64,000 nt of DNA from a virus (IMGVR_UViG_3300022752_000048:1-64000), one strand, 5' to 3'; numbered from the stretch's first letter, positions 1 to 59,062 are shown. Numbers and translations are program-made. The notes: a model not told the origin generated them from the letters alone.

Positions 1-2724
1 AGCGGGAATTTTCTTAAGTTCAGTGGGTAAAACTTCTGTACCTTTTAATTGGCCTAATAGACCAGTAAGTTGAAGCTGTTCATCGGCTGAAACCTTTTTT
101 TCTTTAAAATATTTACTTGGATCAACACTCTGAGTAAAGAGAGCTTTGTGCTTTTCCATCAACTTTGTTTCAGTTGCTGAAATATTTAGATCTTTATACT
201 GCTGTAATTGATCTATATTTAATACACCTTCGGAGATTTTATCAAAAAAAGTCGCCCGTGCATTTTTTGCTCCAGCTAACGCGGCAGCGGTATTGGCCGT
301 AGCCCGAGTCTGTTCAGCAGCATTTTTTCTATCCGCAGATTTTACTGCATCGTCATTAGAGGCACTTCCACCAAGATTAAGGTTTGATCTAGTACCTTTT
401 ATGATATCTTCGACCATTACGCCGCTAGAACCGGCTATTCTTCTGGCCTCTGATTTTACATTTTCTATTTCTTTAGCCGACATTCCCTTTGTCGTGCCAA
501 ACTTTTCTCTAAACTCTTTTAGAGTCATCATTACTAATGCAGAAACCATGGAATCTCGTAAGTCGTCCATGGCCTTGCCAGAGAATAGACCGGCTTTTTC
601 ACGTCCTACTGATTCGAGTAATTCTCGAACAGGCAGGGGCGCATTTGTATCTATTTTTCCAGTTTTGGAGAATTTTTTTGCGTAATCTCCAAGTACCTGA
701 AAGTCTTTTGTACCGAATTTTTCCCCTAAAATATTTAATGCAACGTCTTTATCTTTAATGTCTACTTTGTCCAAAAACGCTGCTATGTTTTCGCGTGTAT
801 ACGTTTTAACCCCGATGTTTTTATTTCTTACTTCATCAGCCTGTCCATAACTACGCTGCATGCGTTCAAAGTCTACTAATTGACCACCACCCGCTTGTTG
901 CATATTTGCTACAAGCTTAGAGACCATATCAATATCACCAGTTTTCATTTGCGCGGCAACATTTGCCACGTTTTGCACAAACGCTTGGCCTAATTCACTA
1001 TTATCCATTCCAACAGCAACTGCTCGACCGAGAACTTCTTCTAGCTTTTTAATGTTTCCTTCGACAGAAACACCGCCAGAAATTCTTCCTAAAAGAGCAG
1101 CCTGCCCTAATAATTGCTGTTCGTTTCCACGACCACTAACTGCCATGCGGCGAACACGTTCAAGAGAAGCAGCATCGGAAGCTTTAATTCCTCCAGCGCC
1201 AGCACCACCAACGGCGCTTAATAAAGTCATTATAGACTCGCTTGCCTCGGTACCTACAGTTACCCCCATCCTTCCTAAAACATTTGCAAACTGCTTCTTT
1301 TCGGGAGCGCGGAGCTGTTCGGCAGTGCGAATCATCGCGCCTTCTTGGTCATATGCTGGAGCTGTAACTTCTTTTGCAGATTCTTCAAGAACGTCAAAGA
1401 AACGCCCAGATTTTGTTGCACCCATACGCGGATTAACAGAACCAAGATATTTATTAAGATTATTAATATTTACGGTTTCGTTTTGAAGAACCGCGTTTTC
1501 CATCTTGCTAATTTGCTCAGTAAGAGTTTTAGTATCAAACGCAGTTCTATTTTTAAGGTATAGATCGCCTAGCATGCCACCAAATAAATCTTTAGTCATG
1601 CTTTGGCGCATTAAGATATTATTACCTGGCGCGTTAGCTGCAACATCAGCAGCAGCGGTTAAGCCACCGGCCAAAACAGATGCAACTGCGCCACCACCAC
1701 CACCAGAAGTAAAACCTTCTAATAAGTTTTTTGGATTAAAACCTTTATCAAATATTACCGTTTTGGCAATATCTTTTAATTCTCTTTGAGTTTCGGCAAT
1801 ATCAATTGCCTGTTTATTTTCCGTCGCTAATTTATCAATCCGACCGACTAAATTAGATGTTGCGGCGGTAGAAGACAAACCGGGAGAACGTAAAACTAAA
1901 GCTTCTGCGCTATAATCTTGAAAATTTCTTAAAAATCTTTTCTGTTGGAAACCGCTCAAGCGAGCCATATTTGCATAGGTATCAGTGGCTGCGGTAGCCA
2001 TTTCTGACTGATAATTTAAATATGCATCAATACCAGAATTAATTAAAGATCCAGCAGTTTGTAATCCAAGGCCAGTCAATCCCCCACGAAGACCTTTACG
2101 AGGTTTTGTGCCAAGGTTTTCAATAACATCTCCTAAACCACCTCCGCCACCACCATCTCCTCCGCCTCCGGCTCCACCGGCACCTGATCGTGATGGATTA
2201 GATAAATTTGTGTTAAGTTTTTCAACGGCTTGAGTTAATTTATCAGTAGAGCTGGCTAATCTGTCTTGTTTTTGTATAAACAAAGCTGATTGTGGTGCGT
2301 TTGCAATTTGGCTACGATCAAACACCCCGCTTCCAAACGTGCCTTGTGTTTGCATCAATGGTCGTTGAATAACCCCCATTCCTTGATGTGATGGTGAATA
2401 TTGACTTAAATTAGAAAGCCCTGTGTTGAATCTAGCTGCCTGATTCTGAGATTGAGCATACGAAGTATTATAAATAGATGGTTTGTTTTGTTCACCAATT
2501 ACAGAATAAATAGAATGAGGCTGCCCAAATGCTGGTGAATTTGATATTTTTGATGAAGCTGTTTGCGCAGAGGTTTTAATTTGATTGGGCGGAATTACAC
2601 TATTTTGAAGCTTATTAATATTTTCAGTTTGAACAATTTGTGTGCGATTTTTTGCAGAGGCGAGCTTTGCAGCATTCTCCATATCACGCCGGACTTGATT
2701 AAAACCGCCTTTGTTCTTGCCCAT
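1..2724 (-). CDS. Tape measure protein, N-terminal part (runs off the window)
   Basis: Not in the ORF track. Manual translation from ATG 2724 (MGKNKGGFNQVRRDMENAAKL...) appears open to position 1 (...ELKKIPA), 908 codons. Ala/Gly/Gln-rich and helical, directly downstream of chaperone-like and tube genes. Confidence 0.75.
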   Translation of the reverse strand, partial: MGKNKGGFNQVRRDMENAAKLASAKNRTQIVQTENINKLQNSVIPPNQIKTSAQTASSKISNSPAFGQPHSIYSVIGEQNKPSIYNTSYAQSQNQAARFNTGLSNLSQYSPSHQGMGVIQRPLMQTQGTFGSGVFDRSQIANAPQSALFIQKQDRLASSTDKLTQAVEKLNTNLSNPSRSGAGGAGGGGDGGGGGGLGDVIENLGTKPRKGLRGGLTGLGLQTAGSLINSGIDAYLNYQSEMATAATDTYANMARLSGFQQKRFLRNFQDYSAEALVLRSPGLSSTAATSNLVGRIDKLATENKQAIDIAETQRELKDIAKTVIFDKGFNPKNLLEGFTSGGGGGAVASVLAGGLTAAADVAANAPGNNILMRQSMTKDLFGGMLGDLYLKNRTAFDTKTLTEQISKMENAVLQNETVNINNLNKYLGSVNPRMGATKSGRFFDVLEESAKEVTAPAYDQEGAMIRTAEQLRAPEKKQFANVLGRMGVTVGTEASESIMTLLSAVGGAGAGGIKASDAASLERVRRMAVSGRGNEQQLLGQAALLGRISGGVSVEGNIKKLEEVLGRAVAVGMDNSELGQAFVQNVANVAAQMKTGDIDMVSKLVANMQQAGGGQLVDFERMQRSYGQADEVRNKNIGVKTYTRENIAAFLDKVDIKDKDVALNILGEKFGTKDFQVLGDYAKKFSKTGKIDTNAPLPVRELLESVGREKAGLFSGKAMDDLRDSMVSALVMMTLKEFREKFGTTKGMSAKEIENVKSEARRIAGSSGVMVEDIIKGTRSNLNLGGSASNDDAVKSADRKNAAEQTRATANTAAALAGAKNARATFFDKISEGVLNIDQLQQYKDLNISATETKLMEKHKALFTQSVDPSKYFKEKKVSADEQLQLTGLLGQLKGTEVLPTELKKIPA

Positions 2725-2736
2725 TCATAGTCTCTT

Positions 2737-3078
2737 TTATTTATCTAAAGCTTCCATATGCTCGTTTTGAGCGGCTTCTAAACCTTCCCTTATGGCAACA
2801 ATCGGATTTAAATCAACTAAATCCCAGATTTTCTCTTTAGAAAACCACTCAGGACATTTTTCGCACAACGTAGTTAGTTCACAGATTGCTTTTGTGATCT
2901 GTTGTGTTTCAAAATCAGAATCGTTTCCTAAATTGCGCCTACTAAATTCTACCGCAATTTGTTGGCGGTCTTTTAGAGTGGGAAAAAGCTTCAAAACAAA
3001 ACTTCCCCCGTAAACTTGCCCGCTGAATTCACCTTTTACGTTTACATCAAACACAGCTTTTCCGTTTACGACTGGCAT
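2737..3078 (-). CDS. Putative tail assembly chaperone
   Basis: 113 aa, immediately upstream of the tape measure gene; FPTLKDRQQIAVEFSRRNLG...PEWF resembles myophage tail chaperones. Confidence 0.55.
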   Translation of the reverse strand: MPVVNGKAVFDVNVKGEFSGQVYGGSFVLKLFPTLKDRQQIAVEFSRRNLGNDSDFETQQITKAICELTTLCEKCPEWFSKEKIWDLVDLNPIVAIREGLEAAQNEHMEALDK

Positions 3079-5151: not shown

Positions 5152-5865
5152 ATGATTTACGCTGATTTTCATGACGTATATTTTAATCTTTTGGAAGAAC
5201 TTTATAGCCGACCACAATATGTTTCTGCGCCACGGGGCCAAAAGATACACGAACTTGTCGGTAAACAGTTTGTCATTAATCCTAATCTTGGGATAAAACT
5301 GGATTGGACAAAGACTGGCCTACCAGAACGCCAACCAATCTACGATAATTACTGTAAAAAAGAACTTGATTGGTATCTAAGCGGTAATCTTAGGGCAGAT
5401 TCTGCACCCGCCAAATTCTGGCAAACAATTGCCGACGAAAATGGAATTATTACTAGCAACTATGGATACCTTACCTTGTTTGCCAAGAAGTACCCCACCA
5501 GTGGGGGGGAGTGGCTTACTGGTTATGAATTTGTGGTAAAAACTCTTAAAAAGGACAGGGATAGTCGCCAAGCAATTATGCATTACGGCGAATCAAAAAA
5601 TTTTTGGGAAGGGAATAAGGATACGCCATGTTGCGCTAATAATCAGTTTATTATTCGTAATGACGAACTAGTTTGTATTATTAATTTTCGCAGTTGGGAT
5701 ATATTCTTGGGTGTGCCATACGACATTGAATTTATGCACTATCTACAAACTAAAATTGCAGATCAATTAAACGTAAAAACCGGCACTATTATTTGTAATG
5801 CCGGTAGTTTACATCTATACGAACGAGACTTCGAGAAAGCTAAAAAGGCGCTGCGGAAAGATTAA
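5152..5865 (+). CDS. Thymidylate synthase-family pyrimidine C5 (hydroxy)methylase, dCMP-type specificity residue
   Basis: DRDSRQA, DTPC (catalytic Cys), RSWDIFLGVPYD, GSLHLYE. Asp (GAC 5722-5724) sits where dUMP enzymes have Asn. Start set at ATG 5152 because GAGGA lies at 5141-5145. Confidence 0.85.
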   Translation: MIYADFHDVYFNLLEELYSRPQYVSAPRGQKIHELVGKQFVINPNLGIKLDWTKTGLPERQPIYDNYCKKELDWYLSGNLRADSAPAKFWQTIADENGIITSNYGYLTLFAKKYPTSGGEWLTGYEFVVKTLKKDRDSRQAIMHYGESKNFWEGNKDTPCCANNQFIIRNDELVCIINFRSWDIFLGVPYDIEFMHYLQTKIADQLNVKTGTIICNAGSLHLYERDFEKAKKALRKD

Positions 5866-50312: not shown

Positions 50313-50514
50313 TTTCAGATTCCTCTTTCTTTTGCATGCGAGGTTCTTTATATGCCTTTTCTACACCATTCACAGCAGCTAGCGCAATGGCTACTGATGC
50401 AATAGAATTTGCAACGTCTACATTATGGGTATAGCCCAAAATGGCTAGTAATGTGATTGTATAAAAAGCAATTGCCGTACGTCTGCAGCCATTGAATGGT
50501 TTTAGCAACATCAT
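50272..50514 (-). CDS. Putative holin
   Basis: 80 aa with two hydrophobic segments and a charged tail; directly upstream of the endolysin. Confidence 0.55.
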   Translation of the reverse strand: MMLLKPFNGCRRTAIAFYTITLLAILGYTHNVDVANSIASVAIALAAVNGVEKAYKEPRMQKKEESENAGNGSKNKKASS

Positions 50515-52217
50515 TTATACTTCTTTTTTAATAAAGAATGCGCCTTTTTAAGGATCTCTACGCTTCCAAACCCTTGTTTTTTTACTGGTTTGTCATTTAC
50601 AGATTGTTGTTCGCCCATTCTTTTAGAATAATCACCAACAATATCAGATTCTGGGATTTCTCCCGCCACAGCACCCTCTTTCGGCTTGCTTGGAAATGCT
50701 GGATTTTTAGCCTGCTCGGCAGATTTGTACATAGACTTGGCAGCTTCTCCGTTGCCAGACCCTTGTTTTTGTTTCATCTTTCTTTCAATTTCTGCTTTTG
50801 GCATAGCTATAAACCCTTCATTTGCCGAAGGGATTTCTTCCGGTTTTTGAGTTTCTGTCTTTTGCTTTTGAGCAGCTTCCTGTCTGGCCTTTAGTTCTGC
50901 GATTCTAGCAGCATATTCTGCAGCGCCGCCACCAGCGACCATTGAGCTGCCGCCTTTTTTGGGCTTTGTTTTTGCTCTGAATTCACCAGAACCCGGCGAA
51001 TAATTTTCTTGTGAAACAATTCCTTGCGCCTCTTTGGTAGCGCCTTCTGTTGCGTCACCAATATCGCGTTCTGTCGCTCCTTGTGGTCTTAAACCTGAAC
51101 CGCCTTTGGCTCCTTGTCGAGCTAAAAACCAATCCATGTGCTCGGCCTGAGCCTGTGCACTTGGGCCGTATTTAGAACTACGACCCGGCACGCCTCTTGA
51201 TCCAGGGCCAGTAAGTTGTGTTAAAGAACCGCGTGAATCTGGGGAATAGTTTCTTGAATATAAATTTTGATCTGCGCTTCCCTGGTATTGGCGTTTTGTT
51301 TCAAAACCAGGAACTCGCCTAGTTTCTTCTTGTTCCATAAATTCTTTTGGCATTTCTTCAGAAGCAGGTTTTTGTTCAGCACGAAATTGCTCTGCAGCCA
51401 TAGAAACTTTTGGATCATAAAGAGCGCTCTTTGTATCAGGATCTTCGAAATCGGGATCATAATTGGGAGACTGAGGATCACCAAGACCAAGAGCAGCCGC
51501 GCCAAATTTTTGTTTTGCGCTCAAGATTTGCTCATTAAGCTCTTTCATTCTTTTTAATCTTTGAGGTGCAAGTTTTGGATCTTGAGCGTTTTTAATTTCT
51601 TCTTCGGTTTTTGGCTTTGCAAGTGACCTGAGTTCTTCTTGCAAGGGAGCAATATCTTGCTCAAATTGTCGACGTACTTCGGTGTCACGGCCAACTTTCC
51701 TTGGTACTGAGACTGTTTCAGTTTTTGGAACTTGAACATCAACAGGTTTGCCTGTGTATTCTTGTTCGGCATGTTTATTGTGATATTTCAAAGCAGTTTT
51801 GTAGTGCGCTTGAGCTGCTTTTGCATCTCCACTTCGCTCTGCATCTTCGCCCATATCTTGAGCTAATTTAGCTACTTCTCTGTACCTTTTTTGACGTTTT
51901 AGGTCTTTCATTGCATCTGTAAGTGCAGCATCGTCGTTTTCTTCGTCAGCCTTCATCATTGCCGTTTGAGAAGAAGTTTGTACCATTCCGGGGCTCATCT
52001 CCCCTGCTGGACGCGACCCACCCATTGGCATTGCCTGTTTTTGCAGTTCCGTAGCTTTTTCCATTCTGAGTTTGTTAAATACATCAGAGCGATCTTCTGG
52101 AGCAACCTTTGGCATTACTTCATTGACTTTAGCGGGGCCTTTAATTTCTTTCACTGCTTGGTCAACGGACATAGCTTTGCACATTTTATGCATTTTTTTA
52201 AGATGCTGGATGCTCAT
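50511..52217 (-). CDS. Low-complexity charged protein, possible internal head protein
   Basis: 568 aa, E/K/Q/G-rich and likely disordered; recurrent (L/M)xK(A/S) motifs. Confidence 0.5.
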   Translation of the reverse strand: MSIQHLKKMHKMCKAMSVDQAVKEIKGPAKVNEVMPKVAPEDRSDVFNKLRMEKATELQKQAMPMGGSRPAGEMSPGMVQTSSQTAMMKADEENDDAALTDAMKDLKRQKRYREVAKLAQDMGEDAERSGDAKAAQAHYKTALKYHNKHAEQEYTGKPVDVQVPKTETVSVPRKVGRDTEVRRQFEQDIAPLQEELRSLAKPKTEEEIKNAQDPKLAPQRLKRMKELNEQILSAKQKFGAAALGLGDPQSPNYDPDFEDPDTKSALYDPKVSMAAEQFRAEQKPASEEMPKEFMEQEETRRVPGFETKRQYQGSADQNLYSRNYSPDSRGSLTQLTGPGSRGVPGRSSKYGPSAQAQAEHMDWFLARQGAKGGSGLRPQGATERDIGDATEGATKEAQGIVSQENYSPGSGEFRAKTKPKKGGSSMVAGGGAAEYAARIAELKARQEAAQKQKTETQKPEEIPSANEGFIAMPKAEIERKMKQKQGSGNGEAAKSMYKSAEQAKNPAFPSKPKEGAVAGEIPESDIVGDYSKRMGEQQSVNDKPVKKQGFGSVEILKKAHSLLKKKYK

Positions 52218-52299: not shown

Positions 52300-53235
52300 T
52301 TGGAGTCGTCTATGGCAATTGATTTAAGTAAGATGACATTTGGCGCTGAGTTAGAACTGGGTGATGTTGATACAAAAATTGTTTTACCGCCCGGAAATAG
52401 ATGGTGCGATAAAGACGGATCTATCTGTAATTCCAACGGAACTGCAAACGATCCCAAAAAAATCTTCAATCGATATGGCGGCGAAATCCAAATGAAACCG
52501 GAAAACACACCGGAAGAATTGCTTCGTGCTACGAAGGAGATTTACGACCTTCTCCCTAAAAAACATTTTAACTTTACAACTAATTTACACGTTCATATTC
52601 GTATCCCCGGCCTTAAAGACGATTTAGAGGCCCTAAAGAAAATTGTCACGTATCTTCGAAAATATGATGAAGAAATCTATGAACTTATAGATCCAAACCC
52701 ATTTCCAGAGCGTCAGCTAAAGTTTTCAAATCCAGATTTTTATAATGGTGCAGTCTCAAGATGGCGTCGAAGGAATAAATCCCATAGATACCGGGTTACA
52801 GAAAAAGTTTATAAACTTATGATGAATGCCAAATCTCCACGCGAATTTTACGAGGCACACGCCCCCAAGAATCGTTTTGGACAACCTATGTGGCATGTTG
52901 TTGTTAGGGCTGGTGTTAACCTAAAACAAATATTCGAAGATACGGAAACTATTGAGTTTCGGCATTTCACGATGTCGCCAGATTTAAACAAAATGCTTTC
53001 CGCCTATAAATGGCCAAAGCTTTTGATGGAAGCTATTTTTGTTACTGGTCATACACCAAAACAAATTTTAGAAAACAATCCAGATCTGGTATTTCAAAAC
53101 TTTCATCCGTATGACCACGGGCTAGACAAAATTTTTAGGCAGACTAATGTTTATCATAACAAACGTTCAGAAGTACGAGAGAATTACAAGCGTTTAATCG
53201 AACAAGGTTTGATAAACGAACAGTCCTTATATTGA
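52300..53235 (+). CDS. Amidoligase (glutamine synthetase-like COOH-NH2 ligase family)
   Basis: TFGAELE, DGSI, GGEI, LHVHI, ETIEFRHF motifs. The real start may be the ATG of MAIDLSK. Confidence 0.8.
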   Translation: MESSMAIDLSKMTFGAELELGDVDTKIVLPPGNRWCDKDGSICNSNGTANDPKKIFNRYGGEIQMKPENTPEELLRATKEIYDLLPKKHFNFTTNLHVHIRIPGLKDDLEALKKIVTYLRKYDEEIYELIDPNPFPERQLKFSNPDFYNGAVSRWRRRNKSHRYRVTEKVYKLMMNAKSPREFYEAHAPKNRFGQPMWHVVVRAGVNLKQIFEDTETIEFRHFTMSPDLNKMLSAYKWPKLLMEAIFVTGHTPKQILENNPDLVFQNFHPYDHGLDKIFRQTNVYHNKRSEVRENYKRLIEQGLINEQSLY

Positions 53236-53242
53236 GGAATAT

Positions 53243-53695
53243 ATGAAAATTTTATTTATCTGTACTGGCAATAAATTCCGCAGTCCAACTGCGGAGCATA
53301 TTATGAAATGCCTAGCGCCGCATTTAGAAGTTAAATCCGCTGGAACCGCAGAAGGAGCTGATAAAAACTATTTAATGGCTAAAAAAATGCGTCGTTGTTT
53401 AGTGGAATTAGGTTATCCCGAGCCTAAAATTCGGTCGCAGCATGTTACGGATGATCTTATGAATTGGGCTGATGTAGTTTTTTATATGGCACCAATTCAT
53501 GGTAAATATTTGTTTGAAAACCATTACCCGTTTATTAATAAAACCCAAGGTTTATACAGTTGGCTTCCAGAAGAAAGTTTAAAAAGGATTGAAGACCCCG
53601 CCTTTATTAAAAATCACGAAGATGTAATGGAAATTACTAAATTAATTGAAAAAGCTGTAAAATCAATTCTGGCACAACAAGCTAAGCGTATTTAA
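53243..53695 (+). CDS. Low-molecular-weight phosphatase (LMW-PTP/ArsC fold)
   Basis: ILFICTGNKFRSPTAE (CX5R), SAGT, WADVVFYM, IEDP general acid. Confidence 0.88.
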   Translation: MKILFICTGNKFRSPTAEHIMKCLAPHLEVKSAGTAEGADKNYLMAKKMRRCLVELGYPEPKIRSQHVTDDLMNWADVVFYMAPIHGKYLFENHYPFINKTQGLYSWLPEESLKRIEDPAFIKNHEDVMEITKLIEKAVKSILAQQAKRI

Positions 53696-53925
53696 ATTTC
53701 AGAATTGCTGATTTTGTTTTTTTGACGAGAGCCTGTTGGGATAGAGGTACCCGGAAGTTTAGGAGCTTCCGGCATTTTTATTTCTGGAGCTTTAAATGTA
53801 GTTTTCTTGGAAATAGAAGATACAGTGCCGTCCAGAATTTTATACATTCTGTCTTGGACAGTTTCGGCAGGGGTGGATTTAGCCATTTTCTTGCATAGTT
53901 CGACTATTTCTAATAGCTTGTTCAA
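53692..53925 (-). CDS. Small basic protein
   Basis: 77 aa; LCKKMAKS resembles the N-terminus of 50511..52217. Confidence 0.45.
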   Translation of the reverse strand: MNKLLEIVELCKKMAKSTPAETVQDRMYKILDGTVSSISKKTTFKAPEIKMPEAPKLPGTSIPTGSRQKNKISNSEI

Positions 53926-54415
53926 GTTCGGCCTCTGTTACAATCCAAGGTGGTACGCAAACCATTTTATGCTCTATTTTACCATATTGGATATTGGATA
54001 AAAAAGGCTTCATGAGTTCTTGTTCATCTTGGTGGCGATTTTCTTTAATATAACCGATACTATTGATATTTTTATCAAGTAGTTTAGACATACAAGCCAT
54101 GCAGGGCTGGATACTCACAATAAATTGATATTTATGAATATTCATTGTTTCTGTCATCTTTTCAATAAGATCTGCCTCGGCATGACGAACTAAGAATTTT
54201 TTGGCAGGATTTTTGTCGATTGCAAGTTCAGCAAGAGCCTTTGAACTTTTTTCAAAAGCAGAAATTATCTTATTAACGCCGTAGGCAACAACCGAATTTG
54301 TTGAAGGGTCTATGGCAATTGAAACTACCTGAACTAGTGGATCGCTACTTCGTTTTTTAAGAACGTCAAATAGGATCTCGGTGCTAACTACAGGATAGGT
54401 GCCGTAGACAAACAT
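53879..54415 (-). CDS. Zn-dependent (d)CMP deaminase-family protein
   Basis: HAE...QPCMAC zinc motif; overlaps the kinase 3' end. Confidence 0.8.
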   Translation of the reverse strand: MFVYGTYPVVSTEILFDVLKKRSSDPLVQVVSIAIDPSTNSVVAYGVNKIISAFEKSSKALAELAIDKNPAKKFLVRHAEADLIEKMTETMNIHKYQFIVSIQPCMACMSKLLDKNINSIGYIKENRHQDEQELMKPFLSNIQYGKIEHKMVCVPPWIVTEAELEQAIRNSRTMQENG

Positions 54416-55026
54416 TCTTTAATTCCTTGCTGTAGCTTTTGCACTACTTGTTCGGGTGAATCTTCAAAATCTACTTTTACTAGAGTAACAGGGGCGCGGC
54501 ATAAATCCAAGAAATATCCTACGCACATCTTTGCTCTATCTGTAAATACCTGAACATTATTAAATGTTAAATCAGGAAGTCGTTCTTCGACAATTCCGGC
54601 ATTTTTTCTGCGGAGCGAAAGGCGTTCTCTGATTTTTTCTACTGCAAAGTCGTAATGAACTACTACAACACGAATATCTTGTTTATGGCGATATTCGTTC
54701 ACCATTTCAACCCAACGTGAGGTCGACATAACGCCATCGATAATAACTGTATCTGATAGCTCTAGAGCATCGAAAAAACCAGTTCTAACTAAGGATGGTG
54801 TGGTTATAGAATCCGTGCCAGAATTTTTATTACCAACCAAAACACAATTATCATATTGAACAATACTATATTTTTGCTCAATCGTAGCACCTCTATTTGG
54901 CATCCGCTTTTTAATGAATTTACCCATCTTAGAAATTTCTTTGCCGGCCCCCTGGCAAAAAGTGTTTCTAGTGGTAGTTTTACCTGTTGCGCCTGCGCCC
55001 ATAAGGAAAATTGCTAGCTTAGTCAT
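54388..55026 (-). CDS. P-loop kinase, 5-hydroxymethylpyrimidine DNA kinase (5-HMUDK)-like
   Basis: IFLMGAGATGKTT, VLVG...SGTDSI, VIIDGV, RERLSLRR; neighbour of an aGPT-Pplase2 gene. Confidence 0.75.
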   Translation of the reverse strand: MTKLAIFLMGAGATGKTTTRNTFCQGAGKEISKMGKFIKKRMPNRGATIEQKYSIVQYDNCVLVGNKNSGTDSITTPSLVRTGFFDALELSDTVIIDGVMSTSRWVEMVNEYRHKQDIRVVVVHYDFAVEKIRERLSLRRKNAGIVEERLPDLTFNNVQVFTDRAKMCVGYFLDLCRAPVTLVKVDFEDSPEQVVQKLQQGIKECLSTAPIL

Positions 55027-55393
55027 GGAAACCCTCTATGTACTCCTGATTAGTTTTATGGCATTTAACGCAAATTCTATTTCCGTGTGGCGAAAAGAAA
55101 ACAGTATTACACTTCAAACAATTTCTGTTTTTTGGCTCTGCAGATCCATGTTCCAAAAAGAACTTTTCGTCTGCCTTCCGCAGTTCTTCCATAAGCTGTT
55201 TATGCCTCTGTTTACGTCTATTTGACGTTTTTTCTCTATTCTTTTTAACTTTTTCTGTCAAATCATTCCAGCTCAAATTATGATGTTCGACATAATTTTT
55301 CATGAAAGATTCATGATTATCTGTAACAGGAACTGGAATGTTAAGAGTTTTGCAAAACACCTTTAGTGTAATTTTGATTTCATTAACAATCAT
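55019..55393 (-). CDS. Zinc-ribbon protein
   Basis: CLKC...NRICVKC. Confidence 0.6.
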   Translation of the reverse strand: MIVNEIKITLKVFCKTLNIPVPVTDNHESFMKNYVEHHNLSWNDLTEKVKKNREKTSNRRKQRHKQLMEELRKADEKFFLEHGSAEPKNRNCLKCNTVFFSPHGNRICVKCHKTNQEYIEGFHD

Positions 55394-55403
55394 TGTTTTG
55401 CCT

Positions 55404-55733
55404 TTACTCTAATTCTGCACCCATATCGACGATCCCCTCCTTTTGAAGGAGCGAAAGGGCAAATACTCTTTTAGAATCTGCAAAGTTTTTAGTTTCGTTA
55501 AACGCACTTCTAAAAGTTTGTAAAATTTCTTGTGCAGCCTTGAATTCTGGATTAGCTTCCATTTCCTTCTTAGCTTTAAGTACGTGCGCATTTTGTTCTG
55601 CAATAATCTGTTTTAGTTTATCTACATTATAAGTTTTAAGCATTTGCAATTCATCATAAGAATAGTTTTTTACAAACGCTTTTTCAATGTCACTCAAATG
55701 GCTATATTTATTTGACTTACTCTTCTTTCTCAT
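55404..55733 (-). CDS. Hypothetical helical protein
   Basis: 109 aa, ATGA overlap with the transferase gene. Confidence 0.55.
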   Translation of the reverse strand: MRKKSKSNKYSHLSDIEKAFVKNYSYDELQMLKTYNVDKLKQIIAEQNAHVLKAKKEMEANPEFKAAQEILQTFRSAFNETKNFADSKRVFALSLLQKEGIVDMGAELE

Positions 55734-56593
55734 ACGACATCCTCCACAAAAAGTAATTGCTGGTTTTTAATATATGCAGTTTTTTCTTTTACTGAAAAAT
55801 GGTGTTGAAGAAATTTATGATCAAATCCGCATTCATCAATTAAATTCCAAAATACGTCATCTGTATAAATTTCTGGCTTTTTAAGAACTAAAAACTCATT
55901 GATATCATGTCCAACTACATAACTCCCCTTATGCAATATTTTAGGTACTTTACACAAACAACTTTCGACTTGACCAATTGGCGCATTCCACACTCTAGAT
56001 AAGTTCCAACCTAGAGCTTCCCATTCTGGAATTATGTCTTTTGTAAATTTTTGGTTAATTCCATATAGGTAGCGAAGCCCAAACACCGGCCCAGTGTTTT
56101 TATTAGGGTCAGCATTCTCGATTCCTAATCCATTAATGCGAAGGCTGTTATATCTCAGTGTTTGATCCATAAGCTCACAGGTTTTATAGCAAGCCCAGTC
56201 CCCAAAATATGGGATCGTTTTAAACAGTTCTCGTCCGCTATTAAAATCTAGAGGTTTTGTTTTGAGTGTAGTTTCGACTTTTGTCCATTTATCAAAAGCT
56301 TTTTCAAAATTTTCAATACGACGAACTTGCGGAGTTCTACCCCGTTCCATACCAAAGCGGCTGATTTTTTCAAACATTTGTGTAGGACTTTTTCCATCAG
56401 AAAGTCCACGCATAAACAAGATCATGCTTTCGATAGAATAATAATAAACGTACATAAAAATTGCGGTTTCCGGATCAAATTTTTCATGTTTAATAATTGA
56501 TTTTAGGAGAGGATAAACAGGATCAACGTCTTTGGTATGGATTAAGGCTAGGCTTGCCTTCTCGAAATCGGAAAAATTAAATAGATGTTGCAT
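55730..56593 (-). CDS. aGPT-Pplase2-family amino acid:DNA transferase
   Basis: LIHTKDVDPVYPLL, GMERG, FGDWACYKTCELMD (HhH-like), ESCLCK, YVVGHDI. Confidence 0.8.
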   Translation of the reverse strand: MQHLFNFSDFEKASLALIHTKDVDPVYPLLKSIIKHEKFDPETAIFMYVYYYSIESMILFMRGLSDGKSPTQMFEKISRFGMERGRTPQVRRIENFEKAFDKWTKVETTLKTKPLDFNSGRELFKTIPYFGDWACYKTCELMDQTLRYNSLRINGLGIENADPNKNTGPVFGLRYLYGINQKFTKDIIPEWEALGWNLSRVWNAPIGQVESCLCKVPKILHKGSYVVGHDINEFLVLKKPEIYTDDVFWNLIDECGFDHKFLQHHFSVKEKTAYIKNQQLLFVEDVV

Positions 56594-57482
56594 ACAAATA
56601 CTCTTGAACTGCGTCGGCTAGTTCTTTAATATATGTTGGTGCATGGCGTAAACCATTTGCGGACTTTGGTGTCACATACATCGAAGCACCTTCTTGAATA
56701 AACGCATGTGAATAGTCTTCCATATAAGCCGGCCTCCACCCTGTTTTAGGATCACCGGTAACTTGGATGCCTACCTTCCCATCGGTTACTTTAGAAATAT
56801 GTTCAATAATTTTTTCAATTTTATCTTTAATTTCTAGATCTTTTTGTTCTTTTTGATAAATAAAATGAGTACCTAGATAATAGGTGTCTGTAGTTGGCCT
56901 TGGATATAAATAGGCGTTAATAAAACGGCCTTCTTTAGCATTTAAACAAAACCTTGGATAACGATCAAATACTTCTCCACTTGGTTTGCATTCTACTGAC
57001 CAACCCCAACGATAATCCGTTGGTTTGTATTTGTGAAAACCATTTGCATGGATAACAAGTCGATTGGTTGGTGTTTTGTCTACGCGGCTAGAAAAGAAAA
57101 ATTCTTGAGTAAATTGTACAAATGCCTGTACATTAACATGCATTGATTGTTTATTTAAAATTTTAATATTTCCGACAGTTTCAACAAATTTTAGTTCTTT
57201 GGAATTATTATGATGCGGAATGCTTTTCTGTGTATACCCATAAGGAACAGCTTCGGAAAACAAAATAATCGGGCGACGATCTGCTTGGCCAAATGATTGC
57301 AGCCATAAGTTATAGTTAACTTCGTCTAGCTCCTCACCGGACGGATAAATACACCCAGTGCTGGCTTTCCATGCACCGGGTGAATCATTGTCTTCCCACG
57401 AAAACATAATTTTTCTATTTGTTAATTCCCAAGCAAGGAGCGAGCCAATTAATCCAAAGCCCTTAATATGTACTGTAGACAT
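56577..57482 (-). CDS. FAD-dependent oxidoreductase (DAO/glycine oxidase-like)
   Basis: VHIKGFGLIGSLLAWEL Rossmann motif, AWKASTG, GWRP, NGLRHAP; overlaps the transferase gene. Confidence 0.8.
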   Translation of the reverse strand: MSTVHIKGFGLIGSLLAWELTNRKIMFSWEDNDSPGAWKASTGCIYPSGEELDEVNYNLWLQSFGQADRRPIILFSEAVPYGYTQKSIPHHNNSKELKFVETVGNIKILNKQSMHVNVQAFVQFTQEFFFSSRVDKTPTNRLVIHANGFHKYKPTDYRWGWSVECKPSGEVFDRYPRFCLNAKEGRFINAYLYPRPTTDTYYLGTHFIYQKEQKDLEIKDKIEKIIEHISKVTDGKVGIQVTGDPKTGWRPAYMEDYSHAFIQEGASMYVTPKSANGLRHAPTYIKELADAVQEYLYATSI

Positions 57483-57498
57483 TTTTTAATTCCCGATT

Positions 57499-57996
57499 TT
57501 AATATGGACCAAAGGCTCCACTTCCGCGCCGGCGTGACGGAATTGCATTCTGGCGCTGTTGTTCTTCCCATTCCTTCTGTAGCTCCTCCTGTGTTGCTGT
57601 GATTACTGGCGACGGTGTGCGTGGGCTTGCTGTCGTCGCCAATGTCCCGTTTCCCACAGGAGTTTGCTGTTTTGGTGCGGGAGAAGAAAGATTTTGGTTA
57701 ATACGTTGCAAGACTTCTACCACAGGATTGCTGGAAATTTCTTTAAACAAAGCTGCTAGTTTAGTTGCTTTTTCTTCTACCTCGGAAACAGCCTTAACAG
57801 TTTCTGGATTATTATTTTCCAGCAGCTGTTCTAGCACAGTGTTTAAACTTTTTTGAATATGTCCCCAAAGAAATTCTCCGCTTGGCAAAGACAAAATACC
57901 TTCTTTTAGAACTTCGTTCTCTAGGGCAGATTGAACGTCACTAAGTAATTTAATTTTCTCTTTCTTGTCCATATTATCCCTCGTAAATATCGGCAT
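57499..57996 (-). CDS. Hypothetical protein
   Basis: 165-aa ORF (start probably MDKKEK) between the recA-like and FAD genes. Confidence 0.55.
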   Translation of the reverse strand: MPIFTRDNMDKKEKIKLLSDVQSALENEVLKEGILSLPSGEFLWGHIQKSLNTVLEQLLENNNPETVKAVSEVEEKATKLAALFKEISSNPVVEVLQRINQNLSSPAPKQQTPVGNGTLATTASPRTPSPVITATQEELQKEWEEQQRQNAIPSRRRGSGAFGPY

Positions 57997-59062
57997 TCAT
58001 GGCAATGCCCATGTTCTTAGAAGTAAACACTTCTTGTTTGATTTTGGCGTACAGGTTTTCATCCATTTTGACCAAATCAACAAACTTGGACATATTGCCT
58101 GCCTTAATTCCAAGCTCTTCTGGGCCAAAGTAAATGGTGTTGCCAGTTTCTTTCTTATGGAGTACGCCAAGATTTAGCGCTAGCTCTACAAGCTCTTCAT
58201 ACTGGTTAGCCAGTTCACCGCTTTCCATGTTTAGCCAGAATTCAGCAGCCTTGCCCTCGACAGTAAGACGAGTCTTATTAACTTTGCAGCGAACCTTGGA
58301 ACCGACCGCAATATTCTTGCCTTGGCCGTCTTTGGATTCGGAAACCAGCTTGTCCTTCATGCCAGTTGCCTTTTCCAAGAAAATAATAGTGGAGCACAAG
58401 TGTTTTAGCCGTTGACCACCAGTAAGCACCCATGGATAGTATTTAGCCATGCGAGTATCAAGGTTGGCCATAGCGTGGTTAGTAAGGACTACTAGCACTT
58501 CGCACTCGTTAGCAATACGATTTAGTACGTTTAGCGCTGGATTGATGCTCTTAGAAATGCCACCGTAACCATTTGCAGCACCACTAACATCGCCTTCTTC
58601 CATCGCACCTTGTTCACCAAGCGCAGTAAGGGCCTTAACGGAATCGAGTACAATTGCGCAGCAGTCCTTGTTCTTCTTGATTTCCTCTTCAGCCTTAGCT
58701 AGGGGCTTAATAGCGCCTTCAAATGTATTTGACTGGATAACTACCAGACGGTCGAGATCAACACCCAAGCTGGCTGCCCGTTCAGGGTTAAACGCATATT
58801 CTGTGTCAATAAAGATGCCGTACTTGGTTGGGTTCATTCGTTGCTCTTGTGCCAGCAACTTTAAAGCCATAAGGCTTTTACCAGAACCAGGCGATCCCCA
58901 TAGCATAACCAATTCACCTACTGGAATACCGCCACCAACAGCCCAGTCAAAAGAAACTGAACCGGTGCTCCTGACTTGTTTTTGTTTATTAGAAAATTCT
59001 TTGGCTACGGCAACTCGTTCCATTTTTAGCATTGACGACAAATAGCTTGGTAGTTTTGACAT
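57974..59062 (-). CDS. recA: RecA/UvsX-like recombinase
   Basis: STGSVSFDWAVGGGIPVG, GSPGSGKS, IDTEYA, VLDSV, TGGQRLKH, KVNKTR. Confidence 0.9.
   Translation of the reverse strand: MSKLPSYLSSMLKMERVAVAKEFSNKQKQVRSTGSVSFDWAVGGGIPVGELVMLWGSPGSGKSLMALKLLAQEQRMNPTKYGIFIDTEYAFNPERAASLGVDLDRLVVIQSNTFEGAIKPLAKAEEEIKKNKDCCAIVLDSVKALTALGEQGAMEEGDVSGAANGYGGISKSINPALNVLNRIANECEVLVVLTNHAMANLDTRMAKYYPWVLTGGQRLKHLCSTIIFLEKATGMKDKLVSESKDGQGKNIAVGSKVRCKVNKTRLTVEGKAAEFWLNMESGELANQYEELVELALNLGVLHKKETGNTIYFGPEELGIKAGNMSKFVDLVKMDENLYAKIKQEVFTSKNMGIAMNADIYEG

Follow-up and report, generated by a model that had tools for sequence, protein, structure and literature searches.

The DNA analysed here (the window) comprises the first 64 kb (64,000 nucleotides) of IMGVR_UViG_3300022752_000048, a 79,376-bp IMG/VR viral contig from an uncultured freshwater phage with a CheckV completeness of about 48%. 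Between positions 52300 and 57482 it carries a compact cluster of genes for a flavin adenine dinucleotide (FAD) enzyme, an amino acid:DNA transferase (AADT), a P-loop kinase, a zinc deaminase, an amidoligase and a low-molecular-weight (LMW) phosphatase, which together with a distant gene of the thymidylate synthase (TS) family point to a pathway for the hypermodification of a DNA pyrimidine. An earlier, sequence-only reading of the window had drawn attention to this gene set and had proposed a hypermodified cytosine, or at least a new tailored pyrimidine, as its product. All the open reading frames (ORFs) named in that reading are present in the window sequence, at the positions given below, and their family assignments hold by profile, fold or context tests.

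56577-57482 (-): FAD-type ORF, 301 aa, with an N-terminal GFGLIG dinucleotide-binding motif
55730-56593 (-): AADT (formerly aGPT-Pplase2), 287 aa, with the motif TKDVDPVY
55404-55733 (-): o109, a small conserved ORF found at the same position in contigs L002, L004 and L006
55019-55393 (-): o124, a small ORF with a C-terminal CxxC...CxxC zinc-ribbon-like motif
54388-55026 (-): P-loop kinase, 212 aa, with Walker A GAGATGKTT, GTDSI (GTD motif) and Walker B VIIDG
53879-54415 (-): zinc deaminase of the dCMP-deaminase family, 178 aa, with HAE and PCxxC motifs
53692-53925 (-): o77, a short ORF of 77 aa, doubtful as a gene
53243-53695 (+): LMW Cys phosphatase (LMW-PTP/ArsC fold), 150 aa, with C7-X5-R13-S14 and a later DP motif
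52300-53235 (+): amidoligase (ATP-dependent carboxylate-amine ligase, glutamine-synthetase/GCL superfamily by predicted fold), 311 aa
5131-5865 (+), start probably at 5152: TS-family pyrimidine hydroxymethylase of the dCMP (Asp) type, Thymidylat_synt 2.2e-23

The minus-strand run is tightly packed, with overlaps of 17, 4, 8, 28 and 47 nt between neighbours, and the amidoligase and LMW phosphatase form a plus-strand pair convergent to it. Since the same gene order recurs in the independent contigs L002 (AADT 89% identical), L004/L005 (75%) and L006 (48%), it is not an accident of assembly.

The window AADT scores 0.036 against Pfam ADDT and 3e-8 against phrog_6364 when searched alone, and it matches by tblastn the 'aGPT-Pplase2 domain protein' of Rhodococcus phage Tonitrus. 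Its homologues P0011, P0013 and P0014, with identities of 45%, 38% and 26%, carry PF18724, and a profile built from the window protein and 14 homologues (A1) matches two AADTs of solved structure, PDB 25qc (5.2e-8) and gp46 of phage PaMx11 (8z2m, 4.2e-6). Residues D24, Y47, Y51, W146, K150, E243, T244 and C247 of PaMx11 gp46 correspond to D24, Y48, Y52, W133, K137, E210, S211 and C214 of the window protein, in which C214, E210, S211, W133, K137 and D24 show little or no variation among homologues (alignments A1 and A10). In gp46, C247 attacks C6, W146, K150 and D24 hold the amine donor, and E243 and T244 make up a metal site in which Glu and Thr hold a metal that contacts O4 of the uracil ring (PMC11472151). 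The corresponding motif, V-E-[S/T]-x-L-C (Glu-Thr/Ser-x-Leu-Cys), is unchanged in every lineage, whatever its source of hydroxymethyl groups, and no residue in the known active-site motifs examined tracks the Asp or Asn type of the accompanying hydroxymethylase. By sequence, the window protein belongs to the AADT family, and it would displace the phosphate of a 5-phosphomethyl pyrimidine with an amine nucleophile.

For the P-loop kinase, the sole PHROG match is phrog_800 (0.0072, 15.9 bits), the family to which the verified kinase M6 gp54 belongs (2e-39), where it is mislabelled as a small terminase. The families compared with it were HMUDK_HMUD1 (PF18748), Ploopntkinase3 (PF18751) and phrog_800, and the shared motifs considered were Walker A, the G-x-D-G/GTD loop, hhhEG/DG and R-x-x-x-RR. 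Profile comparison with hhalign gave an E-value of 4e-5 (probability 70%, 121 columns) for the HMUDK group and of 1.5e-4 (probability 51%) for the Ploopntkinase3 group. An exhaustive profile search yielded 114 representatives of the kinase family, 89 of which were scanned; HMUDK_HMUD1 was matched by five of these and Ploopntkinase3 by one. No match was found by tblastn of the kinase against cultured phages, and pairwise BLAST detected no similarity to M6 gp54. Identity with the dNMP-kinase-like protein encoded in the hydroxymethylase operon of two phages from another lineage (G006 and G009) was considered and rejected (hhalign probability 0.9%). As regards context, two small genes separate the kinase from the upstream AADT in the window, L004 and L006, and in P0091 a member of the kinase family is fused to an ADDT domain (5.9e-18). 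Further natural fusions join the kinase family to GNAT (P0066, P0071), to a DSPc phosphatase (P0070, P0084) and to a pyridoxal phosphate (PLP) enzyme (P0097). By function and context, rather than by curated membership, the window kinase can be assigned to a divergent branch of the 5-hydroxymethyl-dU (5-hmdU) DNA kinase type, and it would be predicted to phosphorylate the 5-hydroxymethyl group in DNA.

The FAD-type ORF has no sequence match in Pfam, NCBIfam, PHROG or the PDB when searched alone, and a four-sequence profile of it has no PDB sequence match either. Its AlphaFold model (pLDDT 79.7, pTM 0.81) is nonetheless matched by Foldseek to D-amino acid oxidase (DAAO; 7ct4, 6.9e-11, TM 0.70), to glycine oxidase (7cyx, 1.9e-8) and to PaMx11 gp47, or NGTO (8z79/8z2o, 2e-8; 1.9e-8 for 8z79, TM 0.58-0.60), and it also resembles sarcosine oxidases. 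NGTO is an FAD lyase that cuts N-alpha-glycinyl-T to 5-aminomethyl-dU (PMC11472151); it binds base and substrate through W51, Y180, Q182, R242 and K268, of which Q182 reads O2 and N3 of T. Homologues of the window ORF directly adjoin the AADT in L004, L006, L007, L013/L015 and L017. The model thus points to an FAD-dependent oxidase or lyase with a two-domain DAAO/GR2 fold, likely the counterpart of NGTO. The core of kinase, AADT and FAD enzyme put forward in the sequence-only reading is real, as attested by the profile matches of the AADT, by the HMUDK_HMUD1 members and fusions of the kinase family and by the fold of the flavoenzyme.

The amidoligase scores below the cut-off of Amidoligase_2 (PF12224) (1.1e-3, 19.3 bits for a cut-off of 22), its homologue in L010 reaches 23.2 bits, and the homologues P0053 and P0058 carry PF12224. 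Its predicted structure (pLDDT 95.8) matches the gamma-glutamylcysteine synthetase/glutamate-cysteine ligase fold (gamma-GCS/GCL) in Foldseek (7e-5), with VIA Z scores of 10.2 for YbdK-like 1tt4, 10.1 for YbdK 1r8g, 9.6 for GCL 2gwc and about 9 for glutamine synthetase and PafA. E17, E19, E62, H97, H99, R203, E219 and R221 are invariant in 32 homologues and presumably make up the active-site set, with putative catalytic roles; to judge by the beginning of its homologues, the gene probably starts at the ATG at 52312. The LMW phosphatase matches LMWPc (PF01451) well above its cut-off of 23.2 (4.6e-15, 56.5 bits), has the loop CTGNKFRS at residues 7-14 followed by an EDP motif, and adjoins the amidoligase also in L004, L010 and L011.

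Several arrangements tie this pair to the core. In two unrelated contigs, L010 and L011, the AADT, amidoligase, LMW phosphatase (LMWP) and FAD enzyme lie in a row; P0057 is a single 536-aa protein composed of an amidoligase and a Pfam-positive HMUDK_HMUD1 kinase; and L006, which has the same flanking genes, carries a GNAT at the convergent position held in the window by the LMWP and amidoligase. A further contig, L007, has the PaMx11-like order AADT-FAD-GNAT. The rows in L010 and L011, the P0057 fusion and the L006 swap thus place the amidoligase and phosphatase in the pathway, and the natural fusions as a whole (amidoligase-kinase, kinase-AADT, GNAT-kinase, phosphatase-kinase and kinase-PLP) serve as Rosetta stones for the entire family of pathways. 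Because GNAT takes the place of the LMWP and amidoligase in L006, the amidoligase can be read as the acylating step, and by analogy the swap suggests that it does the job of GNAT by other chemistry, with an ATP-activated carboxylate acylating the 5-aminomethyl group; it is likely to be the terminal tailoring enzyme. The fusion of DSPc phosphatases to the kinase family in turn prompts a proposed role for the LMW phosphatase, which may remove unused 5-phosphomethyl groups. The sequence-only reading was correct in its statement that an amidoligase stands in for the customary tailoring enzymes, but amidoligases or glutamine amidotransferases beside 5-HMUDK and aGPT-Pplase2 have been known since 2021, as uncharacterised genes, from the metavirome contigs of Lee et al. 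(PMC8989533). The phosphatase partner and the exchange of GNAT for amidoligase are not described there or in PMC13229309. What is new here is the amidoligase-phosphatase unit that swaps for GNAT, the fusions, the deaminase in the operon and the cytosine-type supply.

The presumed source of the hydroxymethyl pyrimidine lies 46 kb from the cluster. The best solved relatives of the hydroxymethylase are the T4 dCMP hydroxymethylase (1b49, 2.2e-18) and the CMP hydroxymethylase MilA. Its Asp (PYD) aligns with T4 D179 and E. coli ThyA N177, a column marked by the D179N mutant chain 6l18, the nucleophile Cys is present, and the protein ends 13 residues after LHLYERD, without the C-terminal segment of TS. 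The rule linking Asp to dCMP specificity rests on published mutagenesis (cited in PMC8670742), and Asn occupies this position in the experimentally known 5-hydroxymethyluracil (5hmU) phages SP8, M6 and ViI. Hence, the enzyme is predicted to produce 5-hydroxymethyl-dCMP (hm-dCMP). The gene is alone on the plus strand within a long minus-strand block of tail/tube genes, with its stop overlapping that of its convergent neighbour (5862-5865), and it is the sole TS-family match in the contig. G002, a 169,059-bp relative with a CheckV completeness of 100%, also has exactly one TS-family gene, with the same Asp and in the same tail-gene location. The sequence-only reading had described the window gene as dCMP type and the only one of its family there, and had suggested looking for an Asn-type dUMP hydroxymethylase elsewhere in the genome; both descriptions are confirmed, and a search of the complete G002 found no separate Asn-type enzyme.

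The operon deaminase matches dCMP_cyt_deam_1 (PF00383) just above its cut-off of 25 (6.6e-6, 26.4 bits), with intact HAE and PCxxC motifs. Its gene shares 28 nt with that of the kinase, so that the two are translationally coupled, and is retained in the operon in L004 (70% identity) and L006 (40%). Its nearest atlas families are mononucleotide dCMP deaminases, and it is proposed here to be an hm-dCMP (or dCMP) deaminase. The sequence-only reading had rightly listed it in the minus-strand run but gave it no role; it may turn hm-dCMP into hm-dUMP. In G002 there is a second deaminase at 124 kb (L028:4040-4552, +), more canonical (45.9 bits) and followed by a GP88-family gene, as well as a dUTPase-family gene of undefined specificity (L043; G002:132956-133369, -) with two adjoining ORFs that have no PDB match. 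Both genes fall in regions beyond the coverage of the window contig.

Comparison with other lineages yields two contrasting settings for the same enzymes. In L010 and L011 the set of AADT, amidoligase, LMWP, FAD enzyme and kinase occurs together with ParB and TET/JBP genes, and ParB-linked TET/JBP enzymes are ParB-dependent thymine dioxygenases that make 5hmU and are linked to kinases and AADTs (2026 PNAS, PMC13229309), as Lee et al. had already inferred in 2021 (PMC8989533). Conversely, the near-complete G006 and G009, from another lineage, have a cluster of Pfam-positive HMUDK_HMUD1 kinase and AADT (clusters L009 and L012, with a PLP enzyme next in L009), no TET/JBP, and a single Asp-type hydroxymethylase in an operon of PRA-PH NTP pyrophosphatase, hydroxymethylase, dNMP-kinase-like protein and deaminase (loci L019/L041 in G006 and L038/L042 in G009). 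Cytosine-type supply is thus found repeatedly with kinase/AADT chemistry, G006/G009 being a second independent case, and no discussion of this pairing was found in the literature searched.

G002 carries in addition, beyond the end of the window contig, a stand-alone, aGPT-Pplase-like HMUDK_hel protein (PF18723, 1.6e-24) whose gene overlaps that of a 2-oxoglutarate (2OG)-Fe(II) oxygenase (2OG-FeII_Oxy_3, 1.8e-17) in L021 (G002:77720-80944); the two ORFs lie at 2057-2980 (-) and 1486-2139 (-) of that locus. Matches of the HMUDK_hel protein by tblastn include an 'alpha-glutamyl/putrescinyl thymine pyrophosphorylase', and hhalign found no relation between it and the AADT profile. This pair may constitute a second DNA-modification step in the lineage.

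Taken as a whole, the explanation that we find likeliest, although we hold it only tentatively, is a post-replicative pathway of DNA pyrimidine hypermodification, of the PaMx11 type but with a new ending, that has 5hmU as its target. The dCMP-type hydroxymethylase (5152-5865) would make hm-dCMP, which the operon deaminase would convert into hm-dUMP for incorporation into phage DNA as 5hmU. The P-loop kinase would then phosphorylate the hydroxymethyl group in DNA, the AADT would swap the phosphate for an amino acid, most likely glycine, and the DAAO-fold flavoenzyme would oxidatively cleave the amino acid to leave 5-aminomethyl-uracil. At this point the ATP-dependent amidoligase would acylate the amine with a carboxylic acid, where relatives would use an acetyl-CoA-dependent GNAT, and the LMW phosphatase would clear unreacted phosphomethyl groups. 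The product that we infer, together with the substrates, the order of the late steps and the deamination, is N-acyl-5-aminomethyl-uracil, an undescribed base.

The preference for uracil stems from several sources: the coupling of the same modules to ParB and TET/JBP thymine dioxygenases in L010 and L011, the identity in all lineages of the AADT motif that holds the O4-contacting metal, the persistence in the operon, overlapping the kinase, of a second deaminase when G002 has a canonical one elsewhere, and the mononucleotide (dCMP) specificity of the families nearest to this operon deaminase. A dedicated step from hm-dCMP to hm-dUMP would explain all of these features. As to the product foreseen in the sequence-only reading, the final base is probably undescribed, but its identity as cytosine is not established in view of the L010/L011 context, the AADT motif and the deaminase.

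A number of points nevertheless weigh against the uracil pathway, and some of them lend weight to a different view, in which the dCMP-type hydroxymethylase supplies hm-dCTP, the DNA contains 5-hydroxymethylcytosine (5hmC), and the kinase, AADT, flavoenzyme and amidoligase act on that base. The product would then be N-acyl-5-aminomethyl-cytosine or a related base, and the deaminase would balance nucleotide pools, as does T4 cd. No dedicated phage route for hm-dCMP deamination was found in the papers searched, and MetaGPA contigs with an Asp-type TS, an NTP pyrophosphatase and a deaminase are enriched for modified cytosine (PMC8670742), so that a deaminase near an Asp-type TS need not divert flux to uracil. 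The conservation of the AADT motif is also weak evidence for a uracil substrate, because the metal in the crystal is calcium from the crystallisation mix. To this can be added the Asp at the specificity position, T4 gp42 as the best match, the lack in G002 of any other TS-family gene or of a TET/JBP above threshold, and the fact that the window enzyme departs from the known enzymes of the 5hmU route (SP8, M6 and ViI), in all of which Asn is combined with a Cys-Asn nucleophile motif. The case of G006 and G009, in which a kinase-AADT-PLP cluster is paired with one Asp-type hydroxymethylase in a T4-like operon in the absence of TET/JBP, points in the same direction. Other difficulties for the uracil pathway are that the kinase has no Pfam match and reaches none of the curated family thresholds, that the amidoligase could be amidating the carboxylate of a tethered amino acid instead, and that relatives of the AADT can accept diamines as well (PMC13458397). 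There are also points against a 5hmC target: in L010 and L011 the module acts after thymine dioxygenases, no change in the AADT active site tracks the type of hydroxymethylase, PRA-PH and MazG searches of G000 and G002 found no dCTPase-like gene, literature searches turned up no published 5hmC DNA kinase or cytosine AADT, and such a target does not account for the close linkage of a second deaminase within the operon. On balance, that kinase and AADT act on 5hmC to build an N-acylated 5-aminomethyl-cytosine is a credible second choice, though we would not expect it.

The hydroxymethylase might also be separate from the cluster, producing 5hmC or some other cytosine mark, while the 5hmU used by the cluster comes from elsewhere, for instance from a thymine oxygenase that escaped recognition and is encoded beyond the contig, in the other half of the genome. 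The limited completeness of the contig leaves room for such a gene, the hydroxymethylase is unlinked to the cluster and sits among tail genes, and the 2OG oxygenase and HMUDK_hel protein of G002 indicate that the lineage has more DNA-modification genes beyond the contig end. The G002 oxygenase, however, is a generic 2OG-FeII_Oxy_3 protein that also matches phrog_61; its Tet_JBP score of 5e-4 falls short of the cut-off, and it has no BLAST similarity to the L010 dioxygenase; no ParB partner is seen beside it, and a separate source would again leave the operon deaminase unexplained. We therefore deem this arrangement improbable. More unlikely still is that the cluster acts on free nucleotides or some other metabolite instead of DNA. 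The lack of a curated family match for the kinase and flavoenzyme themselves and the mononucleotide type of the deaminase would fit such a role, but the AADT belongs to its family and keeps its catalytic residues, the kinase-AADT and amidoligase-HMUDK fusions join these enzymes to one another, and the genes are recurrently linked to DNA dioxygenases and to a terminase-proximal position in other phages.

Among characterised systems, the closest to the window cluster is the 5-acetylaminomethyl-dU pathway of PaMx11, which comprises 5-HMUDK, gp46, gp47 (NGTO) and a GNAT (PMC8989533, PMC11472151). Both combine a kinase with an AADT whose catalytic residues agree and with an adjacent flavoenzyme of DAAO fold, and relatives of the window in L006 and L007 even carry the GNAT. 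The window differs in having an amidoligase and LMW phosphatase in place of the GNAT, a kinase and flavoenzyme that have diverged beyond recognition by Pfam, an operon that includes a deaminase and two small ORFs, and a hydroxymethylase of the Asp (dCMP) instead of the Asn type. Through L010 and L011, which share AADT, amidoligase, LMWP, FAD enzyme and kinase with the window, the locus is also akin to the clusters of Lee et al. and of the ParB-dependent dioxygenases (PMC8989533, PMC13229309), but the window lineage lacks ParB and TET/JBP and has instead a nucleotide-level hydroxymethylase of the cytosine type and a deaminase. With the T4 gp42/5hmC pathway it shares the best solved match, the Asp equivalent to D179, the nucleophile Cys and the short C-terminus. 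The window enzyme is nevertheless only about 28-30% identical to gp42, has Cys instead of Thr after the nucleophile and is encoded alone among tail genes, and, in contrast to T4, neither a glucosyltransferase nor a PRA-PH/MazG dCTPase was found in the complete G002. Finally, Acinetobacter phage SH-Ab 15599 resembles the window in combining a 5-HMUDK with an aGPT-Pplase2-family transferase that acts on 5hmdU-DNA and in having a dCMP deaminase in its supply route (PMC13458397), but its nucleophile is 1,3-diaminopropane, its hydroxymethylase is of the dUMP type and it has neither flavoenzyme nor amidoligase (PMC13458397).

Either answer to the question of the base would be new, since it would reveal a supply route from dCMP through hm-dCMP to hm-dUMP or else a new class of hypermodified cytosine. 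Should the target prove to be 5hmC, this would be the first amino-acid-derived, non-sugar hypermodified cytosine made by phosphorylate-and-displace chemistry, which is known so far for thymine only, and the same would hold for G006 and G009, which have a '5-hmdU' kinase and AADT with a complete T4-like 5hmC supply. Hypermodified DNA lets phages withstand restriction enzymes and CRISPR nucleases, and the pathways behind it are a source of enzymes for DNA labelling and sequencing chemistry. The cluster also poses the questions of what group a DNA base receives from an ATP-dependent amidoligase and of why Cys phosphatases recur beside, or fused to, a DNA kinase. Contigs with nearly the whole locus occur in assembled metagenomes of lakes and fresh water from several studies (2015-2019), and this recurrence of the phage suggests that the modification is environmentally common in fresh water.

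The remaining elements of the locus are less distinctive. The small ORF o109 has no significant family match in Pfam, PHROG and other profile scans and is 47% identical to its homologue in L006; o124, with sub-threshold matches only in the profile scans, is kept in L004 (65%) and L006 (34% by tblastn, 4e-13). The identity of o77 is 90% in L002 and 36% in L006, but a hairpin with a 9-bp stem followed by a T-run (53751-53772, +) falls inside it, 56 nt past the phosphatase stop. This is plausibly the terminator of the amidoligase-phosphatase unit, which makes o77 doubtful as a gene. Terminator-like sites in the locus are modestly commoner than in shuffled sequences (9 vs 4.6), whereas promoter-like sites are not (21 vs 18.6). 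A blastn search of the locus against cultured phages gave no match. Beside the amidoligase lies a variable region, occupied in the window by a 568-aa low-complexity ORF (50511-52217, -), in L002 by a 180-aa ORF (L002:14333-14875) and in G002 by ORFs of 715 and 791 aa (G002:30566-35088). The flanking genes belong to replication and repair: they encode a RecA-like protein (window 57974-59062, -), an SbcC/SbcD-like pair (L003:2432-5366, -), a Cpn60/GroEL-family chaperonin (L003:8080-9690, +) and a DnaB-like helicase (L003:14818-16182, +).

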